A stretch of 64,000 nt of DNA from assembly GCA_965223545.1 (NCBI GenBank), contig OZ245006.1, positions 7,264,001 through 7,328,000 on the forward strand, written 5' to 3'. The notes beneath the pieces were generated by a model. The model saw only the letters and a list, made by a program, of their open reading frames with translations, was not told the origin of the DNA and did no database searches. Origin of the DNA: Planctomycetota bacterium. GTDB taxonomy: Bacteria; Planctomycetota; UBA1135; UBA2386. The position numbers were made by a program, and so were the translations under genes. Below, one piece after another: positions 6,985-23,500 of this stretch (the stretch's first letter is position 1; the number at the start of each line of letters is the position of its first letter).

Positions 6985-7344
6985 ATGAGCAAGTTCGTTG
7001 TCTCTCTCTCGCGCGGCAAGGAAGACCCGGACCGGGCCACCGTCGCCTTCACCTTGGCGAACGCCGCTGTCGGCTGCGAACAGGAGACCGTGGTGTTCCT
7101 CAGCAGCGAGGGTGTGCGGCTGGCGATCGAGGGCTACGCCGATGACGTGGCCGAGACCGGCTTCACGCCGCTTGCGGAGCTGATGCGCAAGTTCGTCGAG
7201 GGCGGTGGCCAGCTCTACACGTGCTTGCCGTGCTTCAACAAGCGCGGTCTCGACGAGAACGCCGTCGTGCCGGGCACGGTGATCGTCGGCGGCGCCAAGC
7301 TGGTTGCGTTCATGGCCAGCGGCGCGCCGAGCGTGAGCTACTGA
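6985..7344 (+). CDS. DsrE/DsrF-like family protein
   Basis: VFLSSEGVRLA, YTCLPCFNKRG. Confidence 0.85.
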   Translation: MSKFVVSLSRGKEDPDRATVAFTLANAAVGCEQETVVFLSSEGVRLAIEGYADDVAETGFTPLAELMRKFVEGGGQLYTCLPCFNKRGLDENAVVPGTVIVGGAKLVAFMASGAPSVSY

Positions 7345-7523
7345 GCGTCCGGGGCCGCAAATCTTCGCGCGGCGACAACCTTTCGGAAGGCTCGATGCCG
7401 CTGGCACTTCGACAACGCAGCTCCCGGAGGCTCGAAGACAACACCGGCGTCTGCGCTCAGCGCGGCCGCCCGGGACCGCTGGAATCGCAGGCTCCGCTAC
7501 TCTCGCGGCGCGCTCGGCCTTTG
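7341..7523 (-). repeat. Dispersed intergenic repeat copy A (interrupted by IS110; its 5' GGCCGCAAC lies at 9464-9472)
   Basis: By-eye alignment: ~61/75 identity to 18450-18524 and ~53/77 ungapped identity to 23337-23413. Confidence 0.75.
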
Positions 7524-7538
7524 ATATCTCCTAAGTCA

Positions 7539-7544
7539 TGTCAA
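7539..7544 (-). promoter_or_regulatory. Outward -35 box of the IS110 circle-junction promoter
   Basis: Perfect TTGACA 15 nt from the element end; joining the ends gives a 17-nt spacer to TATGTG (9461-9456) preceded by TGG. Confidence 0.6.
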
Positions 7545-7586
7545 GGGGTTTTCGCTGGGGCTCGACATCGCGTGTGCACGGCTTGT

Positions 7587-9089
7587 TCAGGACTCTTCCA
7601 CAAGACCAGGGAAGTGTTCTTGCATGAGATCACCGATCGGGTGAGGTTGACGTGGGGATTCCACGGCCAGGCCTGTGGCGTCCATTGGGCGGCCACTCAA
7701 GTCCCTCGTCGTCGGAGTCCCCACTCGTCCCTGTCGCCGTTGGTCGCGCTCATGCCGCTGTGGCGCGACGATGCTGCGCGTGAACTTGGCTGCGATGAGC
7801 GCGCGCGCGGCAACCTTCGTGAGCTCGTTGCCGTCGGCGTCTCGCAGGACGTAGCGGACTTGCGTCGACGCCGGCTTGTCATCGGCGCGCTGGCTGTCGC
7901 GACGCTTCAGGAGGGCGTAGACGCGGCGCGCCATCTTGCCAGCCAATGCGATGAGGATGAGGTTGTGGTGATCACCTGCGGCGTAGCGGCGAGCGTAGTA
8001 CGCCGCGAAATCCGGATCCCACTGGCGAGCGACGTCAGCTGCTAGGTAGAGGTACTTCTTGAGTACTCGTTGGCCGGTTTTGGTGATTGGCATCGAGGGG
8101 TCGCTCATGCCCGTCTGCTTCCGGCGTGGACACAGTCCGCAGTAGCTCACGAACTTCTTGCCGTTCGAGAACCGCGCGATGTCGCCTACCAAGGCTTCGA
8201 TGGCCGCAGCGATCGTGGGACCGACGCCGCGCAGTTGCTCGAGTGTTCGGTCAGGATCGACGCCCAGGTAGAGCTTCTTGATCTTTGCGTCGAGCTTGCG
8301 AACGTCCGTGTTCTTGCGCTCGATCTCATCCAGCTCGTACACCACATCCTCTTGGATGGCCTCGTAGTCGAACGGCATCTGCCCCGCAGCTCGCAGCTCA
8401 GCGTAGTACTCGGCGGCCTGTCGGCAGGACTCGAGCACGCGGTCGACCAAGCACGGGTCATGCGTTCCCTTGGATCGCTTCGTCAAGAAGCGCTCCAAGC
8501 GACTCTTCCCAAGGCCGACCGCTTTCACCGGATCGACGTAGCGCCGCAGAAACCCCATCTTAGCGGCACTGAACTTCTCTGCCCCCAAGGCCTTCATGAG
8601 GCTGGGATTCGCCAGTACCAGTATCGCGTGCACACGACGCTTGTGGTCGCTGAGCTCGCGCGCCAACCGCTCACGCCGCTTCACGAGTCGACGGATCGTC
8701 GTCTCGTCGGCAGTTGGAACACGCAGCTGGTGGACGCCCTTTGGATCCATCTGCGGCAGACGCGCAGCGGCCTCGGCGTCTACTACGTCGGTTTTGGTGT
8801 GCTTGCTATAGAACTTCCGCAGGTCGCTCAGCTTCTGTGGTTTGCTCACGTAGATCTGGAACCCTGCGGCGTTCACGTGCGCCGCGATGGGCAGCCACGC
8901 CAACCCCGTTGGTTCCATCACGAAGCTCACCGGACCCTCGGCACCTTCCTGTGCACGGCGCAGCAGAAGGTCAATACCCTCACGGCTGTTCTCGACTGAA
9001 AACGGTCTGCCCCGAGACTTCGCACCATCCAGAACGACGGCTCGGTGCTTGCTCCTCAAGCCGAGATCCAATCCAACGAATCGATTCAT
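7587..9089 (-). CDS. IS110 family DEDD recombinase/transposase
   Basis: VGLDLG, VMEPTG, KTDVVDA (RuvC-like DEDD); LRGVGP, SYCGLCP..QTG, ITKTG in the Tnp domain; GGAGG RBS. Confidence 0.95.
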   Translation of the reverse strand: MNRFVGLDLGLRSKHRAVVLDGAKSRGRPFSVENSREGIDLLLRRAQEGAEGPVSFVMEPTGLAWLPIAAHVNAAGFQIYVSKPQKLSDLRKFYSKHTKTDVVDAEAAARLPQMDPKGVHQLRVPTADETTIRRLVKRRERLARELSDHKRRVHAILVLANPSLMKALGAEKFSAAKMGFLRRYVDPVKAVGLGKSRLERFLTKRSKGTHDPCLVDRVLESCRQAAEYYAELRAAGQMPFDYEAIQEDVVYELDEIERKNTDVRKLDAKIKKLYLGVDPDRTLEQLRGVGPTIAAAIEALVGDIARFSNGKKFVSYCGLCPRRKQTGMSDPSMPITKTGQRVLKKYLYLAADVARQWDPDFAAYYARRYAAGDHHNLILIALAGKMARRVYALLKRRDSQRADDKPASTQVRYVLRDADGNELTKVAARALIAAKFTRSIVAPQRHERDQRRQGRVGTPTTRDLSGRPMDATGLAVESPRQPHPIGDLMQEHFPGLVEES

Positions 9090-9124
9090 GTCCCCTCCAT
9101 GTTCAACGAGTGAGTGTCGACGAG

Positions 9125-9450
9125 AGGACTCTCCCTACCCGCGCAGTCCGCCTGAGGAGGCGAGTCGCCAAAACGGTTCGTGTTTCGGGGCCGTGATTTC
9201 TCACGCCGCCAATCTCCTAAATCGGGTCCCCCACGCGGGAGGAGAGTCGCAGAACCAAATGAGGGGCCGCTCGAAGCGCCACCATTGCGGCAGATCGCGA
9301 AACCTCTCCGTCGCACGCCGGGGGACCCTAAGCTCTCTTGCGGCCGATGACCAGACTCCCGACACGACTCCTGCGGCTGCACCATCGCGCGAGTCTTCCA
9401 CACCGCTACGGCGCGACGGGTGTGGAGAACTCTAGCTTCGCAGATCATGG
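9125..9450 (-). ncRNA. Predicted bridge RNA of the IS110 element
   Basis: Several stems (9419-9432/9391-9404, 9320-9328/9224-9232, GAAA-capped 9192-9205) with loop segments matching the target and donor sequences; ends approximate. Confidence 0.7.
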
Positions 9451-9471
9451 AACCACACATACCGTTGCGGC

Positions 9472-10959
9472 CTACAGGATCGGCAGCAGCACCGGCGCGG
9501 GGCGGATGTCGCCCTCGTCGTCGGCGGTCGCCGGTGAGGCCGCGTAAGTCGGTCGGTTCTGGTCGTCGACGAGGACGCCGCTGGCGTTGCGATAGCCACG
9601 CCAGGCGAGGTAGCGCGTCTTGGTCACGCCGTTGGCCAAGGCACCGCCGGGCAGCACGATGTCGATGCTGTCGTCGAGGATCGTGTTGGTGCCGTCTTGG
9701 TTGGTGCCGGGGCGCGCCATCAGCTGGACGACACCCATGCCGCCGAAGCCGCCGGTGGGGTTCCGGTCCCACATGGACGCGGAACTCGGTGGGGGGTACT
9801 TGCCGTCGATCGCCAGGCCGGAGAACAAACCCTGCGTGCTGATGCCGCCGTCGGCGGACACCGCGAAGCTGTAGTCGGCCAACGCGTAGGTCTCGCCGTG
9901 GGCGTGCAGGACGATTCGACCCAGCGAGTAGAGCACGACCATTCCACCGGCGCCGCCGCCGCCGCCCGCTCCCTGGTTGTTGCTGCCGGCCTGCTCGCCG
10001 CCGCCGCCGTTGCCGCCGTTGGCGGAGATGATCCCCTGTGGCCCGACCTCGATCTTGCCCGCGGCGAGGATCACCAGCGCGCCGCCGCCGCCACCGCCGC
10101 CGCCGCCCTTGTTGTTGCTGATCCAGTTGCCGATCGGCCCGCAGAACGTGCTGCGGTCGCCGCCGCCACCTCCGCCGGCACCGCCGATCGGAGCGGCCAA
10201 CTCGCCGGGAATCACGCGGCCCTGCGCGACGTCGTAGCCCGTGCCGAAGAAGTTGTTGTCCGGATCGCTGTCGGTGAAGCCGACCGGCCCCGCCGCGCCG
10301 CCGGGCAGAAACCGCTGGCTGCTGCCACTGAAGCCCATGCAGCCGTAGCCCCCCTGGCCGAGCACTTGCACGAACGAGGTGCCGTTGGCCTTGACCGGAT
10401 ACCAGGGGTCGCCCTGCGTGGCGAAGGCGCCGCCACCGCCGCCCGAGCCGCGGCCACAGTCGCTCGTGCACGACAGCCAGCCGCCGGCACCACCGAGGTT
10501 GGCGGCGCTGCCGGGCCCGAAGCCGTACTGCCCCCGCAAGCTGGGGCCAGTCACGCTCGGGCTGCCCAGGCCGCCGTTGCCGCCACCGCAGTTGCCGACT
10601 CCGCCGGCGGTGGGAAAGTTGGCCGACTGCAGCGTGTTGACGCGGTCGCCGTCACTGCCGTCGACGCGCAGGGCGCCGTTGACGACGAAGTCACCGGTGA
10701 CGATCCACACCATCGGCCGGCTGCCGGTGCCGCGCACCGTCGTGCCGGCGGGGATGGTGACGTTGCGGAAGATGAACACGCCTCCGCTGACCCCGCGCGG
10801 CGGCTTGCCCACCGGCTGGATCTGGGTGAAGTCCGTGTCGAGGATGACCTCGGCCGCCGTCGGCATGTAGTCGCACTGCGGTTGGGCGGAAACCGCGGTC
10901 GCCAGGCCGGCCGCGCACAGGGGAGCCGCAGCCAGGCCGCGGAGGAGGGTGGTTTGCAT
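9472..10959 (-). CDS. Secreted glycine-rich protein
   Basis: Signal peptide (AVSA-Q); repeated GGGGG tracts alternating with beta strands. Confidence 0.75.
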   Translation of the reverse strand: MQTTLLRGLAAAPLCAAGLATAVSAQPQCDYMPTAAEVILDTDFTQIQPVGKPPRGVSGGVFIFRNVTIPAGTTVRGTGSRPMVWIVTGDFVVNGALRVDGSDGDRVNTLQSANFPTAGGVGNCGGGNGGLGSPSVTGPSLRGQYGFGPGSAANLGGAGGWLSCTSDCGRGSGGGGGAFATQGDPWYPVKANGTSFVQVLGQGGYGCMGFSGSSQRFLPGGAAGPVGFTDSDPDNNFFGTGYDVAQGRVIPGELAAPIGGAGGGGGGDRSTFCGPIGNWISNNKGGGGGGGGGALVILAAGKIEVGPQGIISANGGNGGGGEQAGSNNQGAGGGGGAGGMVVLYSLGRIVLHAHGETYALADYSFAVSADGGISTQGLFSGLAIDGKYPPPSSASMWDRNPTGGFGGMGVVQLMARPGTNQDGTNTILDDSIDIVLPGGALANGVTKTRYLAWRGYRNASGVLVDDQNRPTYAASPATADDEGDIRPAPVLLPIL

Positions 10960-23129: not shown

Positions 23130-23327
23130 CTCCGCAAATGTGGTGTGGGGCGTTCTCGGTGGCTGTCGAATTCTTGCGCGCGTGCTCGAATACTAGGAGC
23201 CTGCCGCACGGGAGGACGAACCATGCACGCGTCTTTCGCACGAGCTCGCCCCGCCAAAACCCCAAAGAACCCACCGAGACACCTACGCGTTCGCGGCCCG
23301 GCCAAGCGCGAAGCTCAGCGCGGCCGA

Positions 23328-23500
23328 GGCCGCAACCAAACTCGGAGCAATCCGCGACCCGAGCGTCGGTCGCGGGTCCCGCGGTCGCCGGCCGCCGCGC
23401 TGAGCCCGGAGGCACTGTCTGTCCGAGCTTCCGGCGCCGCGGCGCCGTTGCCATGGCGGCGGCGTCGCCTCAAAAATGTCATCGGCGCTCACGTACTTGG
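23328..23500 (+). repeat. Dispersed repeat copy C carrying an empty IS110 target GGCCGCAACCAAA
   Basis: Colinear with the IS-deleted copy A (shared CCGCGA, GCGGTC, GCCGCGCTGAGC, CGAGC.TCCGG blocks). Confidence 0.7.

Follow-up and report, generated by a model that had tools for sequence, protein, structure and literature searches.

An IS110-group element with a left-end bridge RNA and a discordant core dinucleotide in a Planctomycetota genome

The stretch of DNA analysed here (64,000 nucleotides, positions 7,264,001 to 7,328,000 of the forward strand of contig OZ245006.1, GenBank assembly GCA_965223545.1, from a Planctomycetota bacterium; hereafter, the window) carries on its minus strand an IS110-family insertion sequence of 1940 bp (9463..7524), which begins with GGTATG and ends with GAGATAT. 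On this strand, the left junction reads GGCCGCA (9472-9466), AC (9465-9464), and GGTATGTGT (9463-9455), and the right junction reads TTAGGAGAT (7534-7526), AT (7525-7524), and CAAA (7523-7520). From the junction reading and the comparison of copies, the left target GGCCGCA together with the target-derived core AC occupies 9464..9472, and the right target CAAA (7520..7523), complementary to the right target guide described below, follows the element in 11 of 11 copies. A first-pass annotation made from the sequence alone had proposed an intact IS110 element with a mismatched core and a bridge RNA (the RNA that guides the recombinase to donor and target) carrying four guide segments; on re-reading of the minus strand, its junction coordinates, guide segments, and pairing counts were all exact.

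The host assembly (8.1 Mb, 70% G+C) contains 11 copies of the element, each 100% identical over the query, which bears out the description of the element as intact. All 11 copies show ...GCCGCAAC|GGTATG at the left and GAGATAT|CAAA at the right, with DNA that varies further out. The target GGCCGCA-AC-CAAA, previously deduced from the two junctions, exists as such in the genome; by exact counts, the perfect target GGCCGCAACCAAA (= GGCCGCAAC^CAAA) is unoccupied at 95 sites, one of them in the same window (23328..23340, plus strand), and occupied at 11. Comparison of the junctions of the 11 copies with the empty target sites places the boundaries exactly at 9463..7524 and the insertion point between the two C's of GGCCGCAAC^CAAAC. 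Parsing of the boundaries with a shared base or a 1-nt duplication was ruled out, the empty sites reading ...GCAACCAAA..., and no base is repeated between empty and occupied sites, i.e. there is no target-site duplication. Terminal inverted repeats are also absent, the ends GGTATGTGTGG... and ...TTAGGAGATAT not being mutually inverted. Judged from these sequences, the element is recently active. In one sequencing run, a collapsed contig covers 7520-9471 at a depth of 66.7, compared with 5.5-9 on the unique flank pieces; this depth, about 10x that of the flanks, is consistent with about 11 copies, and the run is possibly the source sample. Two further runs (X5 and X6) contain identical fragments, with many loose ends at GATC. 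Contigs of X1, the possible source sample, and of X5 and X6 showed no joints, which is neutral as to a circle junction, since rare forms are lost from contigs. No run catalogued as RNA contains the stretch, and one poly-A RNA library (X22) yielded 0 reads, a result that does not bear on expression.

The target word is repeated about 100 times in the genome, and the unoccupied targets lie mostly inside a repeat resembling repetitive extragenic palindromes (REP). The left-arm pattern of this target repeat has 119 matches genome-wide, mostly with GGCCGCAACCAAAC directly after it. The repeat is roughly 195-200 bp long, contains the palindrome GCGGCC-NN-GGCCGC, and often forms tandem arrays (window 7400-7523 and 23300-23500, and genome-wide), for example near C1 5,215,625-5,216,600, where six copies follow one another at 195-bp intervals. 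The full palindrome context is present at 9 of the 11 insertions, the left arm being missing at the window copy and at L011; the window insertion site has the right half of the REP repeat only.

The only long open reading frame (ORF) within the element (7587..9089, minus strand) encodes a protein of 500 aa with two IS110-type domains, both above the curated cut-off: PF01548 (DEDD_Tnp_IS110; E = 1.9e-24, residues 5-162) and PF02371 (Transposase_20; E = 4e-21, residues 281-366). The recombinase also matches the chains of ISCro4 (E = 9e-17) and IS621 (E = 2e-13) in the PDB, and the family assignment of the first-pass annotation is thereby confirmed. Through the ISCro4 alignment, the DEDD residues Asp8, Glu59, Asp101, and Asp104 align with Asp11, Glu60, Asp102, and Asp105 of IS621. 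In 60 relatives, Asp101 and Asp104 are invariant, 58 have Asp at position 8 (the other two being gaps), and position 59 is occupied by Glu in 53 and by Asp in 7. Relatives were collected from species-representative genomes (8 loci, best 42% identity), from a large protein collection (103 relatives, 35-73% identity), and from metagenome contigs (170 relatives, of which 79 loci were kept with their DNA and had their element ends assigned by motif). Within the same order, 2 of 201 genomes gave a match at E <= 1e-30, including the present one, and the match in the other is 33% identical.

The non-coding left end of the element contains the bridge RNA that had been predicted in the 5' non-coding end, with its target and donor loops. 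A hidden Markov model (HMM) of this RNA, built from 13 close sequences, recovered a homologue in 55 of 88 related loci, in each case just upstream of the recombinase gene and on its strand. From these homologues and an alignment (A2) of 26 distinct near-full-length RNA sequences, 4 duplicates having been removed, the structured body was assigned to 9138..9328 (minus strand), consisting of a target-binding and a donor-binding stem-loop with closing helices. Two structures were evaluated in A2. In the first, a long outer helix closes the target loop; 85.1% of the cells are paired and 29 of 48 pairs are changed on both sides, and the slid controls have 44-52% paired. In the second, the middle and 3' segments close the donor loop; 86.1% of the cells are paired and 26 of 38 pairs are changed on both sides, against 40-49% paired when slid. 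Of the 500 shuffles made for each structure, none equalled the observed value on four of the five measures; on the remaining one, further pair types, 6 did so for the first structure and 10 for the second. The best-supported parts are the upper stems of the target loop (99.5% paired, 5 of 7 pairs changed on both sides) and of the donor loop (88.8% paired, 7 of 10), which have in common a GG(U)GG...CC(G)CC motif, and the base helix of the donor loop is 94.2% paired. These compensatory changes support two stem-loops, each with an internal loop, in the left end. The two internal loops claimed in the first-pass annotation are therefore seen in the comparative structure and do not emerge from a single sequence: the minimum-free-energy fold of the 374-nt left end (z = -0.98) leaves the loops undefined, and 14 of 100 shuffles fold as well.

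The middle segment CCCGCGU (9233..9239, minus strand) has two candidate partners, one on the 5' side (about 9317-9312) and one on the 3' side (9144-9138). With the 3' partner, 94.2% is paired, and one pair is CG in 15 sequences, UA in 10, and other in 1; with the 5' partner, the same column is GC in 16, AU in 4, GU in 2, and other in 4, i.e. the compensation is less clean. The two helices (9312-9328, 9233-9239, and 9138-9144) are mutually exclusive, and the dual complementarity is also seen in relatives. It is most likely, as far as the alignment tells, that the mature RNA folds into two separate stem-loops, as in IS621, and we speculate that the 5' pairing alternative may belong to a shorter, target-loop-only RNA. 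Further upstream, a 5' stem-loop CCACAC ... GTGTGG (9398..9425, minus strand) has the counterpart CCACAG ... CTGTGG at the same place in relatives, as judged by eye, and the terminal hairpin that directly precedes the start codon (helix 7) is conserved, with 76.9% paired.

The left target guide GCCGCAAU (DNA, GCCGCAAT; 9284..9291, minus strand) is identical to target positions 2-8. It has the same sense as GCCGCAA, and a wobble pair is possible between its final U and the bottom-strand G at core position 9. The right target guide TTTGGTT (9253..9259, minus strand) is the reverse complement of AACCAAA; its UUUG pairs with CAAA, the core AC is read by its GU, and A7 of the target is a possible partner of U9253. 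Covariation between guides and flanks in homologues, the check that the first-pass annotation had suggested, is observed for both target guides. When a 13-nt loop strand was compared with the 12-nt left flank of the same locus, the longest exact match had a median of 7 nt over 23 loci, against a mean of 3.1 in 460 mismatched pairings, of which 2.8% reach 6 or more; one of the 23, L049, has a left flank that is probably not the true element end and was left out of the core table described below. Pairing of the right target guide, counted from the junction, is at least 4 nt long in 17 of 21 loci but in 0.5% of 374 mismatched pairings, and involves about ten right-target words (CAAA, CGAA, TAAA, TCCAG, CCCCC, CATG, CGTG, TACCC, GGCCG, and CTT). 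Since the differing guides of relatives match their own flanks, the system can be called evolutionarily reprogrammable. In 20,000 first-order Markov 374-mers, the four core guide motifs occurred at frequencies of 0.018, 0.014, 0.0007, and 0.057 (product, about 1e-8), and a chance origin of the four guide matches is negligible. One relative, with identical RNA, is present on three metagenome contigs (L030, L043, and L044), in which ~27 nt of the left flank are common before the sequences diverge; from this sharing, its element seems also to home to a repeated sequence.

The left donor guide UUAGGAGAU (DNA, TTAGGAGAT; 9212..9220, minus strand) is identical at 9 of 9 positions to the right-end tip before the terminal AT (7534-7526), and is of the same sense as the tip AGGAGAT. 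In 21 relatives, the match is 7/7 in 8, 6/7 in 11, and 5/7 in 1; L030, with a right end shorter by 1 nt, falls out of register. The recurrent mismatch is at donor position 7, a position that is tolerant in IS621 (Durrant et al., PMC11208160). The right donor guide region ACACGAACCGT (9173..9183, minus strand) pairs with ATGGTATGTGT by 8 Watson-Crick pairs and 2 G.T pairs, with 1 mismatch, and had been taken for an unusually long guide. This length did not withstand comparison: guide support is found only for 9177-9173 (ACC + GU), which match the left-junction core plus GGT at 5 of 5 positions, and the six further positions do not covary with the left end, matching their own at a mean of 2.27 of 6 against 1.96 in mismatched pairings. 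L041 has the same guide extension beside an unrelated left end, with a match of 1/6. On these counts, 9183-9178 is a conserved loop motif, not a guide.

The right end also carries TTGACA (7539..7544, minus strand), a putative -35 box that comes to lie 17 nt from TATGTG (9461-9456) of the left end only once the ends are joined; a -35-like hexamer at the 17-nt spacing from left-end position 3 is found in 19 of 21 relatives. In the joined ends, the three bases before the -10 hexamer would read TGG (T from the right end and GG from the left), resembling an extended -10 element, and such a promoter would explain why the terminal T of the right end is kept.

The core is AC at the left and AT at the right in 11 of 11 copies, swapped forms number 0, and the empty sites have AC, in agreement with the mismatched AC/AT core of the first-pass annotation. 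The core dinucleotide common to both boundaries and the target, as described for the members studied so far, is not found here. Among the relatives, the base of core position 9 that is read by both right guides equals the last left-flank base in 21 of 22 loci, with the states C, T, and G, and inspection of the table shows that this state switches between close relatives (L059 vs L069; L071/L072 vs L065/L063; L041 vs L033). The last right-end base equals the left-flank base in 7 of 19 loci and is discordant in 12; T predominates, with 14 of the 19 (15 of 21, when all right ends read are counted). The core mismatch is real and clade-wide. The discordant base is probably read by G9255, G9174, and U9284, for which pairing is possible with the C version as well as the T version; this wobble-reader logic fails for the AG-type relatives L065 and L063. 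In a limited literature search on the bridge-RNA core dinucleotide and wobble, only wobbles outside a shared CT core were described.

In IS621, cleavage is reported to fall 3' of core position 9 on the top strands and four positions away on the bottom strands (PMC11208158). Biochemical work reports top-strand-only excision and insertion for CazIS110-1 (bioRxiv 10.1101/2025.10.25.684509) and single-strand excision for IS621 (bioRxiv 10.64898/2026.08.31.748434). Top-strand-only exchange followed by copying would leave the target core at the left junction and the element core at the right junction, as observed. The AC/AT pattern fits as an independent, purely genetic observation that points in the same direction as the two preprints, and is not proof.

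Altogether, an IS110-group element with a left-end bridge RNA and a fixed product dictated by the top strand is, in our estimation, very probably the best explanation of the whole. By analogy with the IS621 literature, the element ends would join, bringing together the -35 box of the right end and the -10 box of the left end to transcribe the RNA, and a recombinase tetramer with both loops would then cleave the top strands on the 3' side of core position 9 and exchange them. The fixed product would be dictated by the exchanged top strand, either through copy-and-paste or through replication of the top-strand joint, and double-strand exchange across a common core would not be what dictates it. 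The discordant base would be read by G in both right guides and by U in the left target guide, each capable of wobble.

Several observations weigh against this reading. Matches of the left target guide are poor in L032 (3), L045 (3), L063 (4), and L072 (5), the right target guide fails in L036 (0) and L053 (1), and the register of the left guide is variable, ending 2-3 nt short of the junction in several distant relatives; in four close relatives, the left guide covers both core positions with the U left over. On the donor side, covariation is weak because the donor ends barely vary, and the left donor guide has no pairing to the core. The -10 hexamer TATGTG is weak and lacks the usual final T, and a promoter scan of the linear copy returned 0 sigma-70-like sites. 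A search of Rfam 15 (E-value mode, 7300-9700) gave no family and only a chance snoRNA match (E = 0.52). The relatives used in the covariation and structure tests are not phylogenetically independent. In L062, L071, and L069, the right-end core is of the target type, and conversion therefore happens at some rate. Finally, the recombinase has Thr326 (codon 8114-8112, minus strand) where IS621 has its catalytic Ser241, as mapped by a single pairwise HMMER alignment. The equivalent column contains Ser in 44 and Thr in 16 of the 60 relatives, the hydroxyl group being retained; among the 74 motif-matching proteins of the 103, 52 have Ser and 22 have Thr. A serine three residues beyond Thr326 is not conserved among the 60. 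A literature search on IS110 elements with threonine at the catalytic serine position found nothing. Because the element is present in 11 identical copies, the Thr326 form has evidently been active, so far as copy number can tell.

Combining these features, we tentatively propose a more specific reading, which we hold to be possible at somewhat less than even chance. The clade would amount to a natural experiment on the IS110 mechanism, each fixed insertion having the target core at its left and the element core at its right. The top strand alone would write the outcome, and both right guides would be tuned to the target-derived base, as present at the integrated left junction or after exchange. 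G and U would bridge the discordance between the donor AT and the targets AC and AG, the terminal T would be kept for the extended -10 promoter, and threonine would serve as the nucleophile in about a quarter of the clade, the present 11-copy element among them.

Transposition might instead proceed mostly without a circle, by direct top-strand transfer from integrated junctions, aided by a short target-loop-only RNA. The right donor guide is fully Watson-Crick paired to the integrated AC-GGT and wobbles with the joined-end AT-GGT, the middle segment closes either the target loop alone or the donor loop, and a pathway of this kind has been described for CazIS110-1 (10.1101/2025.10.25.684509). 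The conserved -35/-10 arrangement, however, would work only after end joining, so that the joined form or circle would then matter, and we regard a mostly circle-free route as rather unlikely.

Also unlikely, in our view, is the canonical double-strand route through a Holliday junction, in which the heteroduplex at position 9 is corrected with bias or the variants are lost by selection. The IS621 structures show bottom-strand cleavage and Holliday-junction resolution, and their authors invoke repair of mismatched nucleotides (PMC11208158); the right-end cores of L062, L071, and L069, converted to the target type, would also be explained. Full double-strand exchange would produce a heteroduplex at position 9 and therefore mixed outcomes, unless repair is biased, whereas AC left/AT right is found in 11 of 11 copies with 0 swapped, for which unbiased segregation has a probability of about (1/4)^11, and position 9 is discordant in 12 of 19 relatives. 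That the left end is merely a cis-regulatory 5' leader acting on translation or stability of the recombinase mRNA, with incidental flank matches, is scarcely credible: the 3' part of the RNA does adjoin the ribosome-binding region and the conserved terminal hairpin (helix 7) is near the start codon, but the loop sequences change with the flanking host DNA across relatives, a coupling not expected of a leader, the four matches would arise by chance with a probability of about 1e-8, and the architecture mirrors the IS621 bridge RNA as reported (PMC11208160).

The reading of a top-strand-dictated, bridge-RNA-guided element can be placed among known systems. The system is of a kind known since 2024 and works like IS621 and ISPpu10, differing from them by its discordant core and by the threonine at the catalytic position. 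Like IS621 of E. coli, it combines DEDD RuvC-like and Tnp domains with a left-end RNA having target-binding and donor-binding loops. The left guides are of top-strand sense and the right guides complementary to the top strand, the right target is short (4-5 nt), the right donor pairing is very short, the 7-nt left donor is tolerant at position 7, a putative -35 box is at the right end and a putative -10 box at the left end, and the targets are of REP type. Unlike IS621, the protein has 500 aa instead of about 326 aa and is weakly similar in the Tnp domain only (the match of E = 2e-13 above). The shared core there is CT, whereas the core here is AY (AC in the target and AT in the element). The left donor guide lies off the core, Thr occupies the Ser241 position, and the RNA body, about 190 nt in length, includes a long helix in which a middle segment has the choice of two partners.

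As in ISPpu10 of Pseudomonas putida, all insertions are into copies of one repeated intergenic palindromic element. The tolerance of wobble pairs between guide and target reported for ISPpu10 (bioRxiv 10.64898/2026.03.19.712850) is a further parallel. ISPpu10 differs in that its core, CT, is shared, and in that specificity also depends on a stem-loop in the target. Here, 2 of 11 insertions are without the left arm of the palindrome, and for this reason a target word of roughly 12 nt seems, from the sites themselves, to be sufficient. The junction pattern is the one that the top-strand-only excision and insertion reported for CazIS110-1 of Caloranaerobacter azorensis would leave; the evidence there is biochemical, whereas the discordant core here is only a genetic footprint. 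Elements of the IS1111 group, which use a seekRNA, belong to the same transposase superfamily and follow the same RNA-guided logic. In that group, the RNA lies downstream of the gene, whereas here it lies upstream, and the right end follows 63 nt after the stop codon.

Bridge recombinases are in development as programmable genome-writing tools, and their strand exchange is disputed between a double-strand Holliday-junction route and top-strand-only copy-and-paste. An element whose core is unlike that of its target leaves a readable record of which strand decided each junction, and one organism here offers 11 such junction records, together with 95 empty targets and 2 candidate scars. The present pattern suggests that a shared core is not required, in which case more target sites would be available, and reading of the core by G/U is a possible design rule. 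Were threonine at the nucleophile position confirmed, it would add a simple variant of the chemistry that is open to testing.

The two candidate scars are REP copies with GGTAT at the insertion point (GGCCGCAAC-GGTAT-CAAA), located in G000 C1 near 611,324 (plus strand) and 537,465 (minus strand). The two copies are of different subtypes, have different flanks, and are otherwise empty. GGTAT corresponds to the first five bases of the element and is one base off its last five (GATAT). We read these sites as probable scars of imprecise excision, which are not derivable from the guide registers. A single GCCGCAATCAAA site was considered as evidence for a converted core and rejected, since it lies outside the REP context.

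Directly upstream of the element in the window is a 495-aa glycine-rich ORF (9472-10959, minus strand). The element begins directly after its stop codon TAG (9474-9472), which overlaps the left target. At the other end, the recombinase stop codon in L045, L047, L046, L062, L071, L072, L065, L063, and others is the TAG within the conserved right-end tip CTTAGGAGA, and the ORF of these relatives reaches, through the -35 box, to within 8-9 nt of the element end.

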